NCBI GenBank assembly: GCA_000004985.1
Contig: GG739040.1
DNA: 35,450 nt
Reading direction: 5' to 3' (one strand)
Source: Naegleria gruberi
Taxonomy: Eukaryota
Below the pieces are notes generated by a model. That model worked only from the letters and a program-made list of their open reading frames with translations. It had not been told where the DNA came from and did not search any database. Both the position numbers and the translations under genes were made by a program. Positions 1-35,450 of this stretch are shown here, piece by piece (within the stretch, counting starts at the first letter, position 1; each line of letters begins with the position of its first letter).

Positions 1-650
1 CCTTCCTCTTGATGGATACTATGAGGGATAACAAATTGAGAAAGCTATTCAGGGACCATTGTAAACAAGAAATGAGTTTGGATAATTACTTACTATTGGA
101 CAAAATTACAGATTACAAAATCCTGTGTGAAAAGTCCTTTGAAATTCAAGTATTCCTCTATGATGACATGAGCCCAAATTCTCATTCTGATTCTCTCTCT
201 GATTCAGGTAGTTCTGCAACTGCCAACTCCTCCAACCTGGACCATCAACACAAAAAGAAGAAGAAGAAGGGCTACACTGAGAAGGATCTCCATGAAATTG
301 AAAAGAAAAAGTACGAAATTGCCTTTGAAATTTACACTGATTTCCTCGATATCAATGGAGACAAATCAGTGAATATCAATAAGAGTGCTGCAGATAGAGT
401 TAAGGAACAATTGGATTACTTTGCAAGTGGTGAGAATGAACATTTGACTGATACTCTGTTTGATAATGTGGAAAGTGAAATATGTGTCTTGATGTTGGAT
501 ACTCATCATCGATTCAAGCAAACTGTGGAATTTCAGAAACAAACTCAAAAGCAACATGTTAAGAAGAATAAGGTCAAGTTTGAAAGTAATAAGGTGAAGA
601 ATTCGAGAAGTGATTTGAATCTGGATTCACTTAAAATTCCGACCAAATAA
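1..650 (+). CDS. RGS (regulator of G-protein signalling) domain protein, 5'-partial; stop TAA 648-650
   Basis: Frame 3 is open from the window edge with no upstream stop; the ORF track starts it at TTG 9 and the first ATG is at 12. The translation matches RGS-box landmarks recalled from RGS4-type domains: LFRDHCKQEMSLDNYLLLDKITDYK vs [32 protein letters not shown]...SVNIN vs KIYNEFI...EVNLD; FDNVESEICVLMLDTHHRFKQT vs [23 protein letters not shown]. A low-complexity insert (SDSLSDSGSS...HKKKKKKG, (AAG)5 at 251-265) sits between helices. The RGS box begins at the window edge, so the gene probably continues upstream. Confidence 0.75.
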   Translation, partial: FLLMDTMRDNKLRKLFRDHCKQEMSLDNYLLLDKITDYKILCEKSFEIQVFLYDDMSPNSHSDSLSDSGSSATANSSNLDHQHKKKKKKGYTEKDLHEIEKKKYEIAFEIYTDFLDINGDKSVNINKSAADRVKEQLDYFASGENEHLTDTLFDNVESEICVLMLDTHHRFKQTVEFQKQTQKQHVKKNKVKFESNKVKNSRSDLNLDSLKIPTK

Positions 651-709
651 TGTATATAATAATAATTTGTAAATAATAATTCTTGGATTGGTGTATTTTC
701 AATGTAAAG

Positions 710-870
710 ATTAAAAGCAATTAATAATTAATAAATTGTAATAATTATGTAAAAAATCGGTAAGGTATTATAAATTCATCCGACTCTCGGAATTGCTTAT
801 TAACATCAAATACTACAATAAAATCCATCATCACAACATTTCCTTCATAAAATTAGTACAAATCAATAAA
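710..870 (+). promoter_or_regulatory. candidate polyadenylation signals for the RGS gene (ATTAAA 710-715; AATAAA 817-822 and 865-870)
   Basis: Exact hexamers lie in the AT-rich stretch 60-220 nt downstream of the TAA stop. No experimental support. Confidence 0.3.
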
Positions 871-897
871 AGCATGCTATTAAACCGTTGATGAAAC

Positions 898-907
898 TTG
901 GCGCCAA
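898..907. promoter_or_regulatory. perfect 10-bp palindrome TTGGCGCCAA (E2F-like site), copy 1
   Basis: A GC-rich palindrome (contains GGCGCC) embedded in AT-rich intergenic DNA; context cTTGGCGCCAAtttttt. It matches the canonical palindromic E2F site TTTSGCGCSAAA. An identical 10-mer recurs at 7261-7270. Confidence 0.4.
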
Positions 908-1036
908 TTTTTTGAATTTAAAATTTAAATAAAAAAAATATCATCAATTCGTGATGGAGAAAAATTGCTTAATCATCAGGAGAATTAACAACAACATGAA
1001 TAGTAATATAATAATAGTAATATAAATTGTTTGATC

Positions 1037-1068
1037 AACAAGGTTTCAACCTTGTGGAGCCTTTTTTA
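1037..1068. repeat. inverted repeat (ACAAGGTT / AACCTTGT, 8-bp arms, 2-4 nt loop) followed by GGAGCC and T6
   Basis: Read directly from the sequence: aacaaggtt tc aaccttgt ggagcc tttttta. It is intergenic. Confidence 0.4.
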
Positions 1069-1144
1069 TAAGAATTCTAATAGATTGCCATTAAACCAAT
1101 AATCATCATCAAGAAGAACAATAATTGGCTCTCCATACAGAAGG

Positions 1145-1169
1145 CTACTTCTCTTCTTGCTGATGATAC
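1145..1169 (-). CDS. possible 3' end of a minus-strand gene whose body is in the masked block (..YHQQEEK, stop TAG 1145-1147 by reverse complement)
   Basis: Only 8 codons are readable before the N run. The alternative reading is a plus-strand start (TTG/ATG at 1157-1165) running into the mask. Strand is unresolved. Confidence 0.2.
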
Positions 1170-4100
1170 NNNNNNNNNNNNNNNNNNNNNNNNNNNNNNN
1201 NNNNNNNNNNNNNNNNNNNNNNNNNNNNNNNNNNNNNNNNNNNNNNNNNNNNNNNNNNNNNNNNNNNNNNNNNNNNNNNNNNNNNNNNNNNNNNNNNNNN
1301 NNNNNNNNNNNNNNNNNNNNNNNNNNNNNNNNNNNNNNNNNNNNNNNNNNNNNNNNNNNNNNNNNNNNNNNNNNNNNNNNNNNNNNNNNNNNNNNNNNNN
1401 NNNNNNNNNNNNNNNNNNNNNNNNNNNNNNNNNNNNNNNNNNNNNNNNNNNNNNNNNNNNNNNNNNNNNNNNNNNNNNNNNNNNNNNNNNNNNNNNNNNN
1501 NNNNNNNNNNNNNNNNNNNNNNNNNNNNNNNNNNNNNNNNNNNNNNNNNNNNNNNNNNNNNNNNNNNNNNNNNNNNNNNNNNNNNNNNNNNNNNNNNNNN
1601 NNNNNNNNNNNNNNNNNNNNNNNNNNNNNNNNNNNNNNNNNNNNNNNNNNNNNNNNNNNNNNNNNNNNNNNNNNNNNNNNNNNNNNNNNNNNNNNNNNNN
1701 NNNNNNNNNNNNNNNNNNNNNNNNNNNNNNNNNNNNNNNNNNNNNNNNNNNNNNNNNNNNNNNNNNNNNNNNNNNNNNNNNNNNNNNNNNNNNNNNNNNN
1801 NNNNNNNNNNNNNNNNNNNNNNNNNNNNNNNNNNNNNNNNNNNNNNNNNNNNNNNNNNNNNNNNNNNNNNNNNNNNNNNNNNNNNNNNNNNNNNNNNNNN
1901 NNNNNNNNNNNNNNNNNNNNNNNNNNNNNNNNNNNNNNNNNNNNNNNNNNNNNNNNNNNNNNNNNNNNNNNNNNNNNNNNNNNNNNNNNNNNNNNNNNNN
2001 NNNNNNNNNNNNNNNNNNNNNNNNNNNNNNNNNNNNNNNNNNNNNNNNNNNNNNNNNNNNNNNNNNNNNNNNNNNNNNNNNNNNNNNNNNNNNNNNNNNN
2101 NNNNNNNNNNNNNNNNNNNNNNNNNNNNNNNNNNNNNNNNNNNNNNNNNNNNNNNNNNNNNNNNNNNNNNNNNNNNNNNNNNNNNNNNNNNNNNNNNNNN
2201 NNNNNNNNNNNNNNNNNNNNNNNNNNNNNNNNNNNNNNNNNNNNNNNNNNNNNNNNNNNNNNNNNNNNNNNNNNNNNNNNNNNNNNNNNNNNNNNNNNNN
2301 NNNNNNNNNNNNNNNNNNNNNNNNNNNNNNNNNNNNNNNNNNNNNNNNNNNNNNNNNNNNNNNNNNNNNNNNNNNNNNNNNNNNNNNNNNNNNNNNNNNN
2401 NNNNNNNNNNNNNNNNNNNNNNNNNNNNNNNNNNNNNNNNNNNNNNNNNNNNNNNNNNNNNNNNNNNNNNNNNNNNNNNNNNNNNNNNNNNNNNNNNNNN
2501 NNNNNNNNNNNNNNNNNNNNNNNNNNNNNNNNNNNNNNNNNNNNNNNNNNNNNNNNNNNNNNNNNNNNNNNNNNNNNNNNNNNNNNNNNNNNNNNNNNNN
2601 NNNNNNNNNNNNNNNNNNNNNNNNNNNNNNNNNNNNNNNNNNNNNNNNNNNNNNNNNNNNNNNNNNNNNNNNNNNNNNNNNNNNNNNNNNNNNNNNNNNN
2701 NNNNNNNNNNNNNNNNNNNNNNNNNNNNNNNNNNNNNNNNNNNNNNNNNNNNNNNNNNNNNNNNNNNNNNNNNNNNNNNNNNNNNNNNNNNNNNNNNNNN
2801 NNNNNNNNNNNNNNNNNNNNNNNNNNNNNNNNNNNNNNNNNNNNNNNNNNNNNNNNNNNNNNNNNNNNNNNNNNNNNNNNNNNNNNNNNNNNNNNNNNNN
2901 NNNNNNNNNNNNNNNNNNNNNNNNNNNNNNNNNNNNNNNNNNNNNNNNNNNNNNNNNNNNNNNNNNNNNNNNNNNNNNNNNNNNNNNNNNNNNNNNNNNN
3001 NNNNNNNNNNNNNNNNNNNNNNNNNNNNNNNNNNNNNNNNNNNNNNNNNNNNNNNNNNNNNNNNNNNNNNNNNNNNNNNNNNNNNNNNNNNNNNNNNNNN
3101 NNNNNNNNNNNNNNNNNNNNNNNNNNNNNNNNNNNNNNNNNNNNNNNNNNNNNNNNNNNNNNNNNNNNNNNNNNNNNNNNNNNNNNNNNNNNNNNNNNNN
3201 NNNNNNNNNNNNNNNNNNNNNNNNNNNNNNNNNNNNNNNNNNNNNNNNNNNNNNNNNNNNNNNNNNNNNNNNNNNNNNNNNNNNNNNNNNNNNNNNNNNN
3301 NNNNNNNNNNNNNNNNNNNNNNNNNNNNNNNNNNNNNNNNNNNNNNNNNNNNNNNNNNNNNNNNNNNNNNNNNNNNNNNNNNNNNNNNNNNNNNNNNNNN
3401 NNNNNNNNNNNNNNNNNNNNNNNNNNNNNNNNNNNNNNNNNNNNNNNNNNNNNNNNNNNNNNNNNNNNNNNNNNNNNNNNNNNNNNNNNNNNNNNNNNNN
3501 NNNNNNNNNNNNNNNNNNNNNNNNNNNNNNNNNNNNNNNNNNNNNNNNNNNNNNNNNNNNNNNNNNNNNNNNNNNNNNNNNNNNNNNNNNNNNNNNNNNN
3601 NNNNNNNNNNNNNNNNNNNNNNNNNNNNNNNNNNNNNNNNNNNNNNNNNNNNNNNNNNNNNNNNNNNNNNNNNNNNNNNNNNNNNNNNNNNNNNNNNNNN
3701 NNNNNNNNNNNNNNNNNNNNNNNNNNNNNNNNNNNNNNNNNNNNNNNNNNNNNNNNNNNNNNNNNNNNNNNNNNNNNNNNNNNNNNNNNNNNNNNNNNNN
3801 NNNNNNNNNNNNNNNNNNNNNNNNNNNNNNNNNNNNNNNNNNNNNNNNNNNNNNNNNNNNNNNNNNNNNNNNNNNNNNNNNNNNNNNNNNNNNNNNNNNN
3901 NNNNNNNNNNNNNNNNNNNNNNNNNNNNNNNNNNNNNNNNNNNNNNNNNNNNNNNNNNNNNNNNNNNNNNNNNNNNNNNNNNNNNNNNNNNNNNNNNNNN
4001 NNNNNNNNNNNNNNNNNNNNNNNNNNNNNNNNNNNNNNNNNNNNNNNNNNNNNNNNNNNNNNNNNNNNNNNNNNNNNNNNNNNNNNNNNNNNNNNNNNNN

Positions 4101-6338: not shown

Positions 6339-6340
6339 GA

Positions 6341-6397
6341 AAAGTTAATTACCATGTGTTAGTGCTTCCTCTCCATGATGAATATGCATTCGAATAG
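6341..6397 (+). CDS. possible 3' end of a plus-strand gene emerging from the masked block (..KVNYHVLVLPLHDEYAFE, stop TAG 6395-6397)
   Basis: 18 open codons then a stop, followed by 1.1 kb with no long ORF. The alternative is a minus-strand start ATG at 6353-6355 (MVINF..). Strand is unresolved. Confidence 0.3.
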   Translation, partial: KVNYHVLVLPLHDEYAFE

Positions 6398-6443
6398 ATT
6401 TTACAAACTAATTATTATACATTCATACAATCGTCTACAGTTT

Positions 6444-6754
6444 GTCATCTTACAGAATTCATCATTTTCCAATTGTTTGAATTCTTTTATCATTTAGAAA
6501 TGAGCGGGAACTTTACTCAATCTTGATATTCGAAACTCTTTCTTTGAGAAACAAGCAGATTGGAATTTTAAACAATAGTTGGAGGAGTAAAATACTTTAA
6601 AATGATGTCAATCTTCAATAATTAAGCGGTGACAATGACGACAATAGCCTCAAATATTGGAGCGAATCAACAAACGAAACTAAACTCCAAACTAAATTGT
6701 CATCTACAGTAAGAATCATCCACAAATGAAAACAATCTACAGTAAAGAATCATC
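6444..6754 (+). repeat. three copies of a ~22-nt direct repeat motif TGTCATCT(T)ACAG(T)AA(A)GAATCATC (6444-6465, 6699-6720, 6733-6754) plus a partial copy CGTCTACAGT at 6432-6441
   Basis: Read by eye. Copies 2 and 3 are 34 nt apart and near-identical; copy 1 is a variant (cttacagaattcatca). All are intergenic. Confidence 0.5.
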
Positions 6755-7260
6755 TATTCACATACCTTTAATTTTGTTCACAAATTAACCATTTTAGGAA
6801 ACTTTAAAGTTGGTAATTTCAATAATAATCAACAACAAGAACTTAAGAACAGAGAATCTCTTCTCTTTGGAACACGCTATACATCTTACTAATGTTTTAT
6901 CAAATTTAATTTGAAATCTGACAGTTTTACTTGCGCTTTAGCACTATACCTGCCAAAATATGGGACTTGAATCAAGAACTTCATTATGAGTAATGTACAA
7001 TGACAAAAAACCGTTCACTTACTTTGAGTGATTTCCTACTCGTTATGAGGCATTTGTTGAACATTATTGTTAGTGAAGTTAATGTCAGCAATCAACTAAG
7101 TACCGCCGATGATTTTCATGTTGTTTGCAAGTTAATATTTGAAAGGAAATTGTAAAGCAGCATTTGGTATTGCTTACTGGTTGATCAATTAATATAATAG
7201 TCTATGATTTCATCAAGTTTGGATTCCATTACAATGATGACTCGAGAGATTTATGTAATT

Positions 7261-7270
7261 TTGGCGCCAA
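7261..7270. promoter_or_regulatory. perfect 10-bp palindrome TTGGCGCCAA (E2F-like site), copy 2
   Basis: Context aatTTTGGCGCCAAgtttgg contains a full TTTGGCGC half-site. It is identical to 898-907. Confidence 0.4.
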
Positions 7271-7460
7271 GTTTGGTTTGTAAACAATCTTAAAGTAGAT
7301 GTTGCTCTCAGCAGTGATGGTCCTCTCGTAAAGATGACGACAATACAAACGATCAAATCTTTGGGCATTCATCATTTGATTCGAATACATTACAGAGAAG
7401 AGAAACCTCACTAAATATTTGAGAGAATAAACAAAGAATAAACAATTCAAGTTTTTTCAA

Positions 7461-7466
7461 TTTATT
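7461..7466 (-). promoter_or_regulatory. AATAAA polyadenylation hexamer (minus strand) 20-25 nt downstream of the TAA at 7486-7488
   Basis: Plus strand reads tttatt. The same spacing is seen after the minus-strand stop at 34985. Confidence 0.35.
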
Positions 7467-7485
7467 AGAATACATAAAGTATTTC

Positions 7486-7506
7486 TTAGAGTTGTTGAGC
7501 CATAGA
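7486..7506 (-). CDS. 3' end of a minus-strand gene lying in the masked block (..SMAQQL, stop TAA 7486-7488 by reverse complement)
   Basis: Only 6 codons are readable. Support comes from the AATAAA 20 nt downstream in the same orientation. Confidence 0.4.
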   Translation of the reverse strand, partial: SMAQQL

Positions 7507-28500: not shown

Positions 28501-31500
28501 NNNNNNNNNNNNNNNNNNNNNNNNNNNNNNNNNNNNNNNNNNNNNNNNNNNNNNNNNNNNNNNNNNNNNNNNNNNNNNNNNNNNNNNNNNNNNNNNNNNN
28601 NNNNNNNNNNNNNNNNNNNNNNNNNNNNNNNNNNNNNNNNNNNNNNNNNNNNNNNNNNNNNNNNNNNNNNNNNNNNNNNNNNNNNNNNNNNNNNNNNNNN
28701 NNNNNNNNNNNNNNNNNNNNNNNNNNNNNNNNNNNNNNNNNNNNNNNNNNNNNNNNNNNNNNNNNNNNNNNNNNNNNNNNNNNNNNNNNNNNNNNNNNNN
28801 NNNNNNNNNNNNNNNNNNNNNNNNNNNNNNNNNNNNNNNNNNNNNNNNNNNNNNNNNNNNNNNNNNNNNNNNNNNNNNNNNNNNNNNNNNNNNNNNNNNN
28901 NNNNNNNNNNNNNNNNNNNNNNNNNNNNNNNNNNNNNNNNNNNNNNNNNNNNNNNNNNNNNNNNNNNNNNNNNNNNNNNNNNNNNNNNNNNNNNNNNNNN
29001 NNNNNNNNNNNNNNNNNNNNNNNNNNNNNNNNNNNNNNNNNNNNNNNNNNNNNNNNNNNNNNNNNNNNNNNNNNNNNNNNNNNNNNNNNNNNNNNNNNNN
29101 NNNNNNNNNNNNNNNNNNNNNNNNNNNNNNNNNNNNNNNNNNNNNNNNNNNNNNNNNNNNNNNNNNNNNNNNNNNNNNNNNNNNNNNNNNNNNNNNNNNN
29201 NNNNNNNNNNNNNNNNNNNNNNNNNNNNNNNNNNNNNNNNNNNNNNNNNNNNNNNNNNNNNNNNNNNNNNNNNNNNNNNNNNNNNNNNNNNNNNNNNNNN
29301 NNNNNNNNNNNNNNNNNNNNNNNNNNNNNNNNNNNNNNNNNNNNNNNNNNNNNNNNNNNNNNNNNNNNNNNNNNNNNNNNNNNNNNNNNNNNNNNNNNNN
29401 NNNNNNNNNNNNNNNNNNNNNNNNNNNNNNNNNNNNNNNNNNNNNNNNNNNNNNNNNNNNNNNNNNNNNNNNNNNNNNNNNNNNNNNNNNNNNNNNNNNN
29501 NNNNNNNNNNNNNNNNNNNNNNNNNNNNNNNNNNNNNNNNNNNNNNNNNNNNNNNNNNNNNNNNNNNNNNNNNNNNNNNNNNNNNNNNNNNNNNNNNNNN
29601 NNNNNNNNNNNNNNNNNNNNNNNNNNNNNNNNNNNNNNNNNNNNNNNNNNNNNNNNNNNNNNNNNNNNNNNNNNNNNNNNNNNNNNNNNNNNNNNNNNNN
29701 NNNNNNNNNNNNNNNNNNNNNNNNNNNNNNNNNNNNNNNNNNNNNNNNNNNNNNNNNNNNNNNNNNNNNNNNNNNNNNNNNNNNNNNNNNNNNNNNNNNN
29801 NNNNNNNNNNNNNNNNNNNNNNNNNNNNNNNNNNNNNNNNNNNNNNNNNNNNNNNNNNNNNNNNNNNNNNNNNNNNNNNNNNNNNNNNNNNNNNNNNNNN
29901 NNNNNNNNNNNNNNNNNNNNNNNNNNNNNNNNNNNNNNNNNNNNNNNNNNNNNNNNNNNNNNNNNNNNNNNNNNNNNNNNNNNNNNNNNNNNNNNNNNNN
30001 NNNNNNNNNNNNNNNNNNNNNNNNNNNNNNNNNNNNNNNNNNNNNNNNNNNNNNNNNNNNNNNNNNNNNNNNNNNNNNNNNNNNNNNNNNNNNNNNNNNN
30101 NNNNNNNNNNNNNNNNNNNNNNNNNNNNNNNNNNNNNNNNNNNNNNNNNNNNNNNNNNNNNNNNNNNNNNNNNNNNNNNNNNNNNNNNNNNNNNNNNNNN
30201 NNNNNNNNNNNNNNNNNNNNNNNNNNNNNNNNNNNNNNNNNNNNNNNNNNNNNNNNNNNNNNNNNNNNNNNNNNNNNNNNNNNNNNNNNNNNNNNNNNNN
30301 NNNNNNNNNNNNNNNNNNNNNNNNNNNNNNNNNNNNNNNNNNNNNNNNNNNNNNNNNNNNNNNNNNNNNNNNNNNNNNNNNNNNNNNNNNNNNNNNNNNN
30401 NNNNNNNNNNNNNNNNNNNNNNNNNNNNNNNNNNNNNNNNNNNNNNNNNNNNNNNNNNNNNNNNNNNNNNNNNNNNNNNNNNNNNNNNNNNNNNNNNNNN
30501 NNNNNNNNNNNNNNNNNNNNNNNNNNNNNNNNNNNNNNNNNNNNNNNNNNNNNNNNNNNNNNNNNNNNNNNNNNNNNNNNNNNNNNNNNNNNNNNNNNNN
30601 NNNNNNNNNNNNNNNNNNNNNNNNNNNNNNNNNNNNNNNNNNNNNNNNNNNNNNNNNNNNNNNNNNNNNNNNNNNNNNNNNNNNNNNNNNNNNNNNNNNN
30701 NNNNNNNNNNNNNNNNNNNNNNNNNNNNNNNNNNNNNNNNNNNNNNNNNNNNNNNNNNNNNNNNNNNNNNNNNNNNNNNNNNNNNNNNNNNNNNNNNNNN
30801 NNNNNNNNNNNNNNNNNNNNNNNNNNNNNNNNNNNNNNNNNNNNNNNNNNNNNNNNNNNNNNNNNNNNNNNNNNNNNNNNNNNNNNNNNNNNNNNNNNNN
30901 NNNNNNNNNNNNNNNNNNNNNNNNNNNNNNNNNNNNNNNNNNNNNNNNNNNNNNNNNNNNNNNNNNNNNNNNNNNNNNNNNNNNNNNNNNNNNNNNNNNN
31001 NNNNNNNNNNNNNNNNNNNNNNNNNNNNNNNNNNNNNNNNNNNNNNNNNNNNNNNNNNNNNNNNNNNNNNNNNNNNNNNNNNNNNNNNNNNNNNNNNNNN
31101 NNNNNNNNNNNNNNNNNNNNNNNNNNNNNNNNNNNNNNNNNNNNNNNNNNNNNNNNNNNNNNNNNNNNNNNNNNNNNNNNNNNNNNNNNNNNNNNNNNNN
31201 NNNNNNNNNNNNNNNNNNNNNNNNNNNNNNNNNNNNNNNNNNNNNNNNNNNNNNNNNNNNNNNNNNNNNNNNNNNNNNNNNNNNNNNNNNNNNNNNNNNN
31301 NNNNNNNNNNNNNNNNNNNNNNNNNNNNNNNNNNNNNNNNNNNNNNNNNNNNNNNNNNNNNNNNNNNNNNNNNNNNNNNNNNNNNNNNNNNNNNNNNNNN
31401 NNNNNNNNNNNNNNNNNNNNNNNNNNNNNNNNNNNNNNNNNNNNNNNNNNNNNNNNNNNNNNNNNNNNNNNNNNNNNNNNNNNNNNNNNNNNNNNNNNNN

Positions 31501-33569
31501 NNNNNNNNNNNNNNNNNNNNNNNNNNNNNNNNNNNNNNNNNNNNNNNNNNNNNNNNNNNNNNNNNNNNNNNNNNNNNNNNNNNNNNNNNNNNNNNNNNNN
31601 NNNNNNNNNNNNNNNNNNNNNNNNNNNNNNNNNNNNNNNNNNNNNNNNNNNNNNNNNNNNNNNNNNNNNNNNNNNNNNNNNNNNNNNNNNNNNNNNNNNN
31701 NNNNNNNNNNNNNNNNNNNNNNNNNNNNNNNNNNNNNNNNNNNNNNNNNNNNNNNNNNNNNNNNNNNNNNNNNNNNNNNNNNNNNNNNNNNNNNNNNNNN
31801 NNNNNNNNNNNNNNNNNNNNNNNNNNNNNNNNNNNNNNNNNNNNNNNNNNNNNNNNNNNNNNNNNNNNNNNNNNNNNNNNNNNNNNNNNNNNNNNNNNNN
31901 NNNNNNNNNNNNNNNNNNNNNNNNNNNNNNNNNNNNNNNNNNNNNNNNNNNNNNNNNNNNNNNNNNNNNNNNNNNNNNNNNNNNNNNNNNNNNNNNNNNN
32001 NNNNNNNNNNNNNNNNNNNNNNNNNNNNNNNNNNNNNNNNNNNNNNNNNNNNNNNNNNNNNNNNNNNNNNNNNNNNNNNNNNNNNNNNNNNNNNNNNNNN
32101 NNNNNNNNNNNNNNNNNNNNNNNNNNNNNNNNNNNNNNNNNNNNNNNNNNNNNNNNNNNNNNNNNNNNNNNNNNNNNNNNNNNNNNNNNNNNNNNNNNNN
32201 NNNNNNNNNNNNNNNNNNNNNNNNNNNNNNNNNNNNNNNNNNNNNNNNNNNNNNNNNNNNNNNNNNNNNNNNNNNNNNNNNNNNNNNNNNNNNNNNNNNN
32301 NNNNNNNNNNNNNNNNNNNNNNNNNNNNNNNNNNNNNNNNNNNNNNNNNNNNNNNNNNNNNNNNNNNNNNNNNNNNNNNNNNNNNNNNNNNNNNNNNNNN
32401 NNNNNNNNNNNNNNNNNNNNNNNNNNNNNNNNNNNNNNNNNNNNNNNNNNNNNNNNNNNNNNNNNNNNNNNNNNNNNNNNNNNNNNNNNNNNNNNNNNNN
32501 NNNNNNNNNNNNNNNNNNNNNNNNNNNNNNNNNNNNNNNNNNNNNNNNNNNNNNNNNNNNNNNNNNNNNNNNNNNNNNNNNNNNNNNNNNNNNNNNNNNN
32601 NNNNNNNNNNNNNNNNNNNNNNNNNNNNNNNNNNNNNNNNNNNNNNNNNNNNNNNNNNNNNNNNNNNNNNNNNNNNNNNNNNNNNNNNNNNNNNNNNNNN
32701 NNNNNNNNNNNNNNNNNNNNNNNNNNNNNNNNNNNNNNNNNNNNNNNNNNNNNNNNNNNNNNNNNNNNNNNNNNNNNNNNNNNNNNNNNNNNNNNNNNNN
32801 NNNNNNNNNNNNNNNNNNNNNNNNNNNNNNNNNNNNNNNNNNNNNNNNNNNNNNNNNNNNNNNNNNNNNNNNNNNNNNNNNNNNNNNNNNNNNNNNNNNN
32901 NNNNNNNNNNNNNNNNNNNNNNNNNNNNNNNNNNNNNNNNNNNNNNNNNNNNNNNNNNNNNNNNNNNNNNNNNNNNNNNNNNNNNNNNNNNNNNNNNNNN
33001 NNNNNNNNNNNNNNNNNNNNNNNNNNNNNNNNNNNNNNNNNNNNNNNNNNNNNNNNNNNNNNNNNNNNNNNNNNNNNNNNNNNNNNNNNNNNNNNNNNNN
33101 NNNNNNNNNNNNNNNNNNNNNNNNNNNNNNNNNNNNNNNNNNNNNNNNNNNNNNNNNNNNNNNNNNNNNNNNNNNNNNNNNNNNNNNNNNNNNNNNNNNN
33201 NNNNNNNNNNNNNNNNNNNNNNNNNNNNNNNNNNNNNNNNNNNNNNNNNNNNNNNNNNNNNNNNNNNNNNNNNNNNNNNNNNNNNNNNNNNNNNNNNNNN
33301 NNNNNNNNNNNNNNNNNNNNNNNNNNNNNNNNNNNNNNNNNNNNNNNNNNNNNNNNNNNNNNNNNNNNNNNNNNNNNNNNNNNNNNNNNNNNNNNNNNNN
33401 NNNNNNNNNNNNNNNNNNNNNNNNNNNNNNNNNNNNNNNNNNNNNNNNNNNNNNNNNNNNNNNNNNNNNNNNNNNNNNNNNNNNNNNNNNNNNNNNNNNN
33501 NNNNNNNNNNNNNNNNNNNNNNNNNNNNNNNNNNNNNNNNNNNNNNNNNNNNNNNNNNNNNNNNNNNNN
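7507..33569. other. hard-masked block / assembly gap (26063 N)
   Basis: An uninterrupted run of n. Confidence 0.99.
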
Positions 33570-33723
33570 GATTTTGGATTTTCGTGATGATCATTGTGAT
33601 GTGTTGGGAATTAGATATGCATCTTCATTGAATTATAACCGGATACTTTTGGAAATCAATGGAAGAAATTGTTGGAGAGATGAGGAATTTAATGCTGATT
33701 GTAAAGGATGGCATGTTTTATGA
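33570..33723 (+). CDS. C-terminal 50 codons of a frame-1 ORF emerging from the masked block (..ILDFRDDHCDVLGIRYASSLNYNRILLEINGRNCWRDEEFNADCKGWHVL, stop TGA 33721-33723)
   Basis: The frame is open from the mask edge. It overlaps the frame-2 ORF starting at ATG 33659 by 65 nt, so the two may be one gene joined by a +1 shift or indel. I see no homology. Confidence 0.3.
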
Positions 33724-34090
33724 AATATTGACTGATTCGAAGATTCCTGCCATTCAATTGTTTTGGGAAACGTTGTTTCACATTCTCAGAGATAGTCCAA
33801 TAATTATGGGCAGTATGAAATGTAAGAGATTTTACAATTTGGAGCTACCAATAGTTTCTGATCATATTCTGAGGAATATTATTGTGCATGTGATGAGGGC
33901 AGTTCAAGAACCAGTTTGGTTTTTGGAAATGATTGTCAATTCGGATAGAAAAAGGAGGGAAACTGTTCATTGTTTGGGATTTGAAGCGTATGTGAAACAT
34001 GTGCAAATTACGAATGGAAACCATGATCTGTATTCTGCCATTGTTGAGGAAAAGAAAGACTGGACTAGTTTGGTATCTCAAAAGGAGTGA
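33659..34090 (+). CDS. hypothetical protein segment A (143 codons), frame 2, ends at TGA 34088-34090
   Basis: Long ORF in AT-rich DNA, with an upstream in-frame TGA at 33629. Segments B and C follow in the same frame. Confidence 0.4.
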   Translation: MEEIVGEMRNLMLIVKDGMFYEILTDSKIPAIQLFWETLFHILRDSPIIMGSMKCKRFYNLELPIVSDHILRNIIVHVMRAVQEPVWFLEMIVNSDRKRRETVHCLGFEAYVKHVQITNGNHDLYSAIVEEKKDWTSLVSQKE

Positions 34091-34096
34091 CGATTC

Positions 34097-34450
34097 TTGA
34101 AATTTCTATCCGAATCAATGGATAGTTATCCAATGATTATGAAAGAATCAATCTATTCGGATTTTATTAATTCACAATTTCAAAGAGATTATGACAATGT
34201 CACCAAGTACAGTATTGATCTAGCTCAATTTCTCTACCTTAAACGAAATATTCCTATTAATCCAAATCAATCTGAACATTTATTTTCATTACTGGCAGCC
34301 ACACCTCTATTCAAACAAATATTTGACAAGCAATTGGAACAAGGGACCGATAGGAGAGTTTTTATAGATCAAATTTTCTTAAGAGAGTCAATTCTGACAT
34401 CTTTTATTTTAAATATGAACTTGGACATTTTGGAAATGTGTTATGAATAA
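34097..34450 (+). CDS. hypothetical protein segment B (117 codons), same frame as A, ends at TAA 34448-34450 then CAA TGA
   Basis: It starts 6 nt after the stop of A in the identical frame. That is too close to be an independent eukaryotic gene, so it is a continuation of A (via intron or read-through) or part of a pseudogene. Confidence 0.35.
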   Translation: MKFLSESMDSYPMIMKESIYSDFINSQFQRDYDNVTKYSIDLAQFLYLKRNIPINPNQSEHLFSLLAATPLFKQIFDKQLEQGTDRRVFIDQIFLRESILTSFILNMNLDILEMCYE

Positions 34451-34456
34451 CAATGA

Positions 34457-34906
34457 GAAATATTAGATGACAAGTCAATTGATTCGAATCTTTCCAAATG
34501 TCCTATTGTAAGCTATTTCATTCAAGCATCACTTACAGCAGAAAACATGATTGATGACCCCAAGAAAATGGTCAATCTCACATGTATGTATATTGAAAAG
34601 TTTACAGAACTATTCGAATCTAGAAATAGGAAAATTTGGGAAAGTTCAATGAGGGATATAATGGTAAAATTGGTAACAGTAGCAAGCTCTGAACTCTGCT
34701 CACTAACTGTTGGATCATATGAGTGGAAACAATGCTATACTGAACTATTCAAAAGACTCATTACAAAGAATATTGAAAAATTTGAACCAAATACGGATCT
34801 ATCATTTGTCTATTCTATTTCATGTCCACAAATTGTAAAATTCCTATTCGCAGAACAACCAAAACAATTCGTACAAATGTTGGAATTGAACGAAAACATT
34901 ATTTGA
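34457..34906 (+). CDS. hypothetical protein segment C (frame open from 34457; first ATG 34547), same frame as A and B, ends at TGA 34904-34906
   Basis: Same frame again. It carries 30 open codons upstream of the first ATG (EILDDKSIDSNLSKCPIVSYFIQASLTAEN-MIDDPKK..). Confidence 0.35.
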   Translation, partial: EILDDKSIDSNLSKCPIVSYFIQASLTAENMIDDPKKMVNLTCMYIEKFTELFESRNRKIWESSMRDIMVKLVTVASSELCSLTVGSYEWKQCYTELFKRLITKNIEKFEPNTDLSFVYSISCPQIVKFLFAEQPKQFVQMLELNENII

Positions 34907-34958
34907 ACGGTGGGCGAATGAACTTTATGCCCGGATTTTAGAAGAATTAGTATTTTGA

Positions 34959-34964
34959 TTTATT
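34959..34964 (-). promoter_or_regulatory. AATAAA polyadenylation hexamer (minus strand) 21 nt downstream of the TAA at 34985-34987
   Basis: Plus strand reads tttatt. The arrangement matches that at 7461-7466. Confidence 0.35.
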
Positions 34965-34984
34965 CTTCAGCAAACGCTAATAAT

Positions 34985-35450
34985 TTACAAGGATGGTTTA
35001 ACGATTGGCTTTGATGGTTTCTTACATGTCTTTCTCTTGATACAAATCTTCTTCTTGATTGACTTGCAACACTTTTTCTTTCCACCAACCAATTTGAATT
35101 TCTTACAAATCTTCTTTCCCTTTGAACGTTTCAAACACTTCTTATAATACTTCTTCTTGATACATCTTGGAGGAATAATAATTGTCTTGGCACAATACTT
35201 CTTCTTTTGATATTTGACACATTTGGAAATAGTCTTCTTGTGCTTACAGAACTTGATGGTCTTATGCTTGGCACAGAAGAATTTCTTCTTAATGAGACAA
35301 CACTTCTTAACTGATTTTCTCTCCTTACAATATTTAACCTTCTTATACTTGGCACATTTCTTTGCCCATGAAACAATCTTGCACTTTTTAACATATCTAC
35401 ATTTGGAAACCTTCTTATTGTAGGAATCAACAGTGTACTGTCGCAAATCT
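34985..35450 (-). CDS. Lys/Cys-rich periodic-repeat protein, 5'-partial (open to window end), stop TAA 34985-34987
   Basis: Over 153 open codons. Composition is 56 Lys (37%) and 17 Cys, with Cys at residues 16, 22, 31, 40, 49/50, 58, 67, 76, 85, 95, 104, 114, 126/127, 135, 141. That is a 9-residue period with units such as CAKYKKVKY, CKERKSVKK, CAKHKTIKF, CKHKKTISK. The underlying DNA is a degenerate ~27-nt tandem repeat. Lys is mostly AAG. An AATAAA lies 21 nt past the stop. Caveat: a stop-free in-frame repeat unit will keep an ORF open by itself. Confidence 0.45.
   Translation of the reverse strand, partial: DLRQYTVDSYNKKVSKCRYVKKCKIVSWAKKCAKYKKVKYCKERKSVKKCCLIKKKFFCAKHKTIKFCKHKKTISKCVKYQKKKYCAKTIIIPPRCIKKKYYKKCLKRSKGKKICKKFKLVGGKKKCCKSIKKKICIKRKTCKKPSKPIVKPSL
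35030..35410. repeat. degenerate ~27-nt tandem repeat (plus-strand motifs cttcttcttgat / ggcacaga / gacacatttgg recurring)
   Basis: Periodic CTT/TTT-rich units punctuated by ACA/GCA every ~27 nt. It also generates open shadow frames (35131-35430 minus, 35214-35423 plus). Confidence 0.5.

Follow-up and report, generated by a model that had tools for sequence, protein, structure and literature searches.

Three collinear reading frames near the end of a Naegleria gruberi scaffold are probably fragments of one decaying duplicated gene

Three open segments in one reading frame

The window analysed here is a whole N. gruberi scaffold of 35,450 bp, 88% of which is N-masked, so that its readable sequence consists of three islands (positions 1–1169, 6339–7506 and 33570–35450). 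The third island carries, on the plus strand, three open segments in frame +2, termed A (33641–34087), B (34091–34447, 119 open codons) and C (34457–34906, 149 open codons, with its terminal TGA at 34904–34906). The stops that separate the segments lie where the initial annotation had placed them: a single TGA between A and B (stop 1, 34088–34090), and the run TAA-CAA-TGA between B and C (34448–34456), in which stop 2 (TAA, 34448–34450) and stop 3 (TGA, 34454–34456) are two codons apart. Under random placement, two of three stops would fall this close together with p = 0.028. Segment C converges on a K/C-rich ORF of the minus strand, which has its end at 34985. No gene model exists at the locus, where no N. 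gruberi protein was recovered for A, B or C. Published values for N. gruberi put introns at 203 bp on average, with 1.7 exons per gene and 33% GC (PMC8296547), and an RNA-seq dataset exists for the species (PRJEB23822; PMC6142364).

Between 33659 and 34903, frame +2 contains 3 stops in 415 codons, compared with 33 and 32 stops in the other two plus-strand frames. At ~0.08–0.09 stops per codon, the chance of meeting at most three in 415 codons is far below 1e-9 (1e-13 at a rate of 0.091), and that of a single open run of 119–149 codons is 1e-5 to 1e-6. Because stops are so few relative to chance, we conclude that frame +2 is protein-coding now or was so recently. The open frame had been described as beginning at 33659, but the same gene runs upstream of this position in frame +1, where a coding remnant (33571–33639, plus strand; ILDFRDDHCDVLGIRYASSLNYN) enters from the masked part. 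The edge of the mask (33569/33570) falls in the middle of a codon, which indicates that mask boundaries were set independently of gene models.

Read-through or codon reassignment had been one of the options proposed for this arrangement. In such a recoding scheme, read-through, selenocysteine at TGA or a variant code would give one continuous frame; the frame is otherwise open, TGA accounts for two of the three stops, and N. gruberi has selenocysteine machinery. However, the remaining stop is a TAA, followed by a TGA two codons on, and neither a SECIS nor any other recoding element was detected by the Rfam scan of 33570–35450. The scaffold also carries an annotated RGS gene (ORF 3–647, 215 codons; RGS domain, Pfam E = 2.4e-8), which is 100% identical to an N. 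gruberi predicted protein. It terminates at TAA, and neither this ORF nor the K/C-rich ORF (154 codons) contains an in-frame stop, from which we take the standard code to be in use. A frameshift and a deletion, described below, also show damage to the gene independently of the stops. Recoding is therefore extremely improbable at this locus. A ciliate or diplomonad source with a variant code, suggested by the AT-richness and the in-frame stops, was discarded on identification of the scaffold as N. gruberi.

Relatives of the gene and lesions upstream

Relatives were sought by an exhaustive phmmer search of 1.84 billion representative proteins with segment A alone as the query, which returned two partial relatives. 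The first, P0008 (E = 7.6e-21), is 88% identical over segment A residues 2–51 (P0008 residues 56–105) and comes from an ENA metagenome contig of 3,288 nt, L002. At the DNA level, L002 matches window positions 33570–34030 at 396 of 407 aligned bases (~97%), with four indels in addition, and this near-identity indicates a sister copy, carried by a different strain or a very closely related species. The second relative (P0009, E = 2.5e-7), 60% identical over segment A residues 2–43 (its own residues 109–150), is XP_002671944.1, an N. gruberi 'predicted protein' of 150 aa also listed as NAEGRDRAFT_72947 (UniProt D2VVA5). Since N. gruberi itself encodes it (on a scaffold of 309 kb), it is a paralogue. 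The peptide encoded by the upstream remnant (33571–33639) is identical in P0008/L002 and 57% identical to residues 63–85 of NAEGRDRAFT_72947. In window coordinates, L002 ends at 34030 and NAEGRDRAFT_72947 at ~33800, both upstream of stop 1.

Pfam recognised no domain in segments A, B and C or in their joined product, the best match being a sub-threshold one to HEAT_ATR (E = 0.03, 14.6 bits against a cut-off of 27 bits). A PDB sequence search with the pieces and the joined product gave no match, and scans of JGI metagenome and viral contigs with the joined protein found no relatives. A word-index homology search with the joined product returned zero matches, a false negative given the later recovery of both relatives by phmmer. 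When the K/C-rich neighbour was used as an anchor for orthologous loci, low-complexity matches only were obtained, and no relevant tandem or dispersed repeats were found across the region. The AlphaFold model of segment A, computed without an alignment, was helical and uninformative (pLDDT 41). Judging from these searches, the gene family is a small, Naegleria-specific orphan without a recognised domain.

The upstream remnant and segment A are read in a single frame in P0008, as …ILDFRDDHCDVLGIRYASSLNYN-GCFWKSME-DSKIYATVYLRRFYE-EIVGEM…, and the window departs from this reading at two sites. At 33640, an extra C turns C into CC (TATAAC-C-GGATAC in the window, TATAACGGATGC in L002), and this 1-nt insertion shifts the frame from +1 to +2. 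Between 33666 and 33667, the window lacks, in frame, the 45 nt (15 codons; L002 2932–2976) that encode DSKIYATVYLRRFYE; in NAEGRDRAFT_72947 the counterpart of the deleted 15–16 residues is DSNVYVPALYLRKFYE. A GAAGA direct repeat flanks the 45-nt segment in the undeleted L002, which is the pattern expected of a slippage deletion. Because L002 and NAEGRDRAFT_72947 both read through the first site and keep the residues at the second, the extra C and the deletion are directly seen to be derived in the window. Polarity was tested at these two sites, the three in-frame stops lying outside the reach of both relatives, and the uninterrupted status of NAEGRDRAFT_72947 applies to its annotated 150 residues.

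These alignments also bear on the start of the gene, which the initial annotation had placed at ATG 33659. In the relatives this codon corresponds to an internal Met (…FWKSME…). Since they align to segment A from internal positions (56 in P0008 and 109 in NAEGRDRAFT_72947), the ancestral start should lie ~110 codons upstream, within the mask.

Lesions of its own are present in L002. It lacks 53 nt that are present in the window (33809–33861, with unambiguous boundaries), carries an extra G 14 nt beyond this deletion and, relative to NAEGRDRAFT_72947, has a stop and a frame change in its N-terminal region. Between the window and L002 there are 2.7% substitutions and, within 460 nt, four indels; three of these break the frame, and each lineage has its own. 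GT…AG was found at none of the boundaries of the indels between the two copies.

Over 133 comparable codons, the window and L002 differ by 3 synonymous and 8 non-synonymous substitutions (pS 0.039, pN 0.025, pN/pS 0.64). Finding at least 8 non-synonymous changes among 11 has a probability of 0.004 for omega 0.1, 0.022 for 0.15, 0.20 for 0.3 and 0.85 for 1; with n = 11 substitutions only, omega ≤0.15 is rejected (p = 0.02) and omega ~0.3 is compatible. As a control, the RGS gene compared with its metagenomic orthologue (L001) gave a pN/pS of 0.21, with pS saturated. Constraint on the locus looks relaxed in this small sample of 11 substitutions. The independent frame-breaking lesions of L002 agree with relaxed constraint.

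A different source of the lesions would be sequencing or assembly error close to the tip of a small scaffold built from Sanger reads, in which case the gene would be intact in the organism, and both the extra C and the stops would be miscalled bases. The locus does lie within the last 1.9 kb of the 35-kb scaffold, and the extra C lengthens C to CC. Yet five separate lesions would have to be explained in this way, including the clean 45-nt deletion with its GAAGA repeat, which is no base-calling error. Among random substitution errors, only a few in a hundred make a stop, so three stops would require dozens of them, whereas the region agrees at ~97% with L002, a metagenome contig obtained independently by Illumina sequencing, and this independent copy is frame-broken as well. 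We consider an artefact very unlikely.

Segments A, B and C might instead be three separate small genes arranged head to tail, for example in a polycistronic unit. Each segment has an in-frame ATG (33659, 34118 and 34547, respectively), and synonymous codon usage differs along the locus: segment A resembles the RGS and K/C-rich ORFs, whereas B and C taken together are richer in A-ending codons (Fisher p = 0.0075), a contrast that may be noise or may reflect regional differences in decay. However, spacers of 27 and 96 nt are too short for eukaryotic promoters and UTRs, the frame shared by all three segments has a chance probability of 1/9, and the ATG of A is internal to the longer ancestral ORF. 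Operons of this kind are not known in Naegleria, and we find this arrangement scarcely credible. The three segments are not paralogous to one another, by which an origin as tandem paralogues was ruled out as well.

In-frame stops, candidate introns and a snoRNA-like match

Candidate introns were examined by enumerating every frame-preserving (3n) GT…AG interval that removes stops and by scoring donors against the generic consensus GTAAGT/GTATGT, which may differ from Naegleria's own; nothing usable on a Naegleria splice-site consensus or on Naegleria snoRNAs was found in the published literature. Around stop 1, the short candidates have weak donors (GTGACG for a 39-nt interval, and GTTTGG). 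The interval of 138 nt that runs from the sole perfect donor (GTATGT at 33988) to a TAG acceptor at 34125 includes 33 open codons, which would be lost. In leave-one-out codon log-odds, 33986–34126 ranks at the 83rd percentile and 34088–34126 at the 63rd. Because the flanks of stop 1 are coding-like and no good splice signals accompany it, its best reading is a nonsense mutation, most likely by point substitution. For stops 2 and 3, the best donor of any 3n interval matches the consensus at 4/6 positions, and the 99-nt candidate proposed previously (34440–34538, GTTATG…TTACAG) has a donor of 3/6; frame +2 is open through all 27 codons past stop 3 inside this candidate. Short frame-preserving introns, another option of the initial annotation, are thus poorly supported, with weak donors for stops 2 and 3 and, at stop 1, a coding-like interval whose sole good donor would cost 33 open codons.

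The Rfam scan of 33570–35450 gave one match, a similarity to the C/D snoRNA snR75/U15 (RF01185) at 34448–34537 on the plus strand (29.9 bits, E = 8e-4). The match covers the full 88-position model and is below the gathering score of 40; in ~8.3 kb of other Naegleria DNA used as controls (the first and second islands, L001 and L002), the best E was 0.13. It begins at the TAA of stop 2 and leaves 8 nt and 1 nt of the 34440–34538 candidate at its ends. By codon log-odds the stretch is the least coding-like of the neighbourhood (8th percentile).

The likeness to snR75 and the SNORD15 clan (CL00045) is collinear, with both antisense elements in snoRNA order (UUAGAUGAC.AGUC…UGAUUCGA and CAUUCA.GCAU). 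In contrast to snR75, the boxes are defective: the C box reads CAAUGAG where RUGAUGA is canonical, and the D box reads CUUA where CUGA is canonical, with no CUGA on the plus strand of 34440–34686. The window match further differs from snR75 by a 3-nt insertion before the D' box, by a central mismatch in each antisense element and by the lack of a terminal stem, its flanks being non-complementary. A C/D snoRNA should have at least 10 nt of unbroken antisense to rRNA, with the 5th nt upstream of D/D' paired to the target. The first antisense element could form 10 contiguous pairs with a conserved LSU stretch (…CCUCGUCAUCUAAUUAG…), although N. gruberi's own rRNA may differ from it. This element is mutated at the position that in yeast pairs with the methylated G, and the D' box is displaced by 3 nt. 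The snoRNA-like match is at best a relic, possibly of an inserted or intron-hosted snoRNA, or else a match by chance. Its low coding score, combined with the clustering of stops 2 and 3, would be in keeping with a former intron or a small insert of non-coding DNA, possibly derived from a snoRNA.

An alternative that draws on these features is a functional gene, truncated at its N terminus and beginning with ATG 33659, in which the in-frame stops are removed by two short frame-preserving introns, the second of which (34440–34538) hosts, or formerly hosted, an snR75/U15-type snoRNA. Several observations that run against a pseudogene would suit such a gene. Over the 1,237 nt past 33667 the frame is kept, interrupted by stops yet never shifted, which is somewhat unexpected in view of the four indels in 460 nt that separate the window from L002. 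The frameshift lies 19 nt 5' of ATG 33659 and the deletion is in-frame, so both upstream lesions are harmless to the ORF from 33659. Stops 2 and 3 are clustered beneath the snoRNA-like match, which an insert or intron fits better than independent substitutions do, and the match, with its 8th-percentile coding score, falls within the candidate intron. Short introns are also accepted in Naegleria annotation, a minimum of 30 bp having been used for N. fowleri (PMC8296547).

Splicing of this gene would nevertheless depend on weak donors (GTTATG at 3/6, and none above 4/6, for stops 2 and 3; GTGACG for the 39-nt interval at stop 1), and use of the perfect donor at 33988 would cost 33 coding-like codons. 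The putative second intron would contain 27 codons of open frame after stop 3, and the snoRNA-like element, which lacks canonical C/D boxes, would leave it with ends of 8 nt and 1 nt. In L002, the sister copy, the frame is broken within segment A, and the pN/pS of 0.64 also speaks against a functional gene. As the frame is kept over 1.24 kb and the upstream lesions spare the ORF from 33659, we leave this truncated spliced gene a small share of the probability, although on balance we judge it unlikely. We give little credence to the proposal that 34440–34538 is a former or current 99-nt intron hosting a snoRNA of the snR75/U15 family, in a coding host that has decayed, or is decaying, into a non-coding snoRNA host gene. 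If true, it would provide an early-branching (heterolobosean) case of snoRNAs hosted in introns and of a degenerating host gene; were the snoRNA-like element real and expressed, it would offer a way into how snoRNA genes are organised in Heterolobosea.

Probable origin of the locus and its parent family

The explanation that we favour, and hold to be probable, is that the three ORFs are fragments of one unannotated, non-processed duplicated pseudogene of the NAEGRDRAFT_72947 family. A recently inactivated pseudogene had been among the options of the initial annotation, and it gains support from the two further derived lesions upstream, from the lesions that L002 acquired on its own and from a pN/pS of ~0.6. 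The ancestral gene would have started ~110 codons upstream of ATG 33659 and would have encoded a predicted helical protein of ~540 residues or more. On the NEG-M scaffold this gene would have accumulated at least five lesions, comprising the +1 frameshift at 33640, the slippage-type deletion of 45 nt, the TGA at 34088 and the TAA-CAA-TGA at 34448–34456. Stops 2 and 3 could have arisen by two substitutions, or could belong to a small non-coding insert or former intron. Judged by its sequence, the locus would no longer yield a functional translated product.

Like non-processed pseudogenes in general, the window copy has an annotated paralogue in its own genome, and it combines a frameshift, a deletion and nonsense codons with the lack of a gene model; its substitutions, 11 in number, may be near neutral. 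Unlike typical members of that class, it belongs to an orphan parent family, for which neither a function nor a domain is known. Identity to the paralogue reaches only ~58–60%, which points to an old duplication and a recent decay. The locus accordingly differs from a dead-on-arrival copy and more closely resembles the loss of a once-functional, divergent paralogue. For annotation, three ORFs in one frame would thus become an ordinary decaying gene copy with a named paralogue, and no new biology would be implied unless the snoRNA-like element is real and expressed.

The paralogue itself aligns by tblastn with the L002 copy over residues 10–150 (58% identity) and with the window over residues 63–150 (56–57%). 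In contrast to the window copy, NAEGRDRAFT_72947 is annotated, lies on a different scaffold (309 kb) and is uninterrupted over 150 residues. Its gene model stops where the frame of the window runs ~370 codons further, which would mean a truncated model or a difference in length between the two genes.

Codon choice and a snoRNA-like match within the focal frame

Synonymous codon choice is unequal along the focal frame when segment A (window 33659–34087) is compared with segments B and C (34091–34903). Among the K, E, Q, L(TTR) and R(AGR) codons, G-ending forms make up 50% in segment A vs 24% across segments B and C (p = 0.0075, Fisher test), and the reverse trend is seen for C-ending two-fold codons (9% in segment A, 22–28% in B and C). 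The second and third stop codons of the frame (TAA 34448–34450 and TGA 34454–34456) lie exactly within a match on the plus strand to RF01185 (snR75, a box C/D snoRNA family; 34448–34537, 29.9 bits, E = 8e-4), whose score is below threshold yet statistically unusual. Both antisense elements are discernible in this match, and its C and D boxes are defective.

Relatives of the focal gene and sensitivity of the homology search

A word-index protein search with the joined translation of A, B and C returned zero matches, though the collection contains both P0008, the protein of the sister copy on ENA metagenome contig L002 (88% identical to the focal product over 50 residues), and the annotated N. 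gruberi paralogue P0009 (XP_002671944.1, NAEGRDRAFT_72947), encoded on a 309-kb scaffold. Where matches are short and partial, a 'no homologue' outcome of the word-index search cannot be relied on. The P0009 gene model stops at residue 150 (…LFWESLFHII), and the window and L002 copies stay in frame beyond this point; P0009 may be a truncated gene model, or the paralogue itself may be incomplete.

Neighbouring genes and a GC-rich palindrome

On L002, an ORF of 767 residues (369–2672, plus strand) without a recorded Pfam match lies 135 nt upstream of the relative of the focal gene. The corresponding N. gruberi ORF is expected within masked sequence, around window 31100–33400. On the other side, an unannotated K/C-rich minus-strand ORF (34985–35450; 56 Lys and 17 Cys among 154 codons) remains open as far as the end of the scaffold and converges on the focal frame, the two stop codons being 78 nt apart. 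It is made up of degenerate short direct repeats, and a database search with it gave only low-complexity matches (P0006, P0007).

An RGS-domain gene truncated by the scaffold start occupies window 1–650 (plus strand). Its orthologue, 73% identical, was found on ENA metagenome contig L001 (1291–1923), and more distant relatives were found in Willaertia magna. The DNA similarity between the window and L001 (76%) stops inside the RGS coding region, short of the 3′ intergenic sequence.

The GC-rich palindrome TTGGCGCCAA occurs at 898–907 and 7261–7270, once in each of two AT-rich, intergenic-looking islands (2 observed vs 0.03 expected). Neither L001 nor L002 contains it. These two sites hold the only GGCGCC in the readable window sequence, and the palindrome appears similar to an E2F-type TTTSGCGC site.
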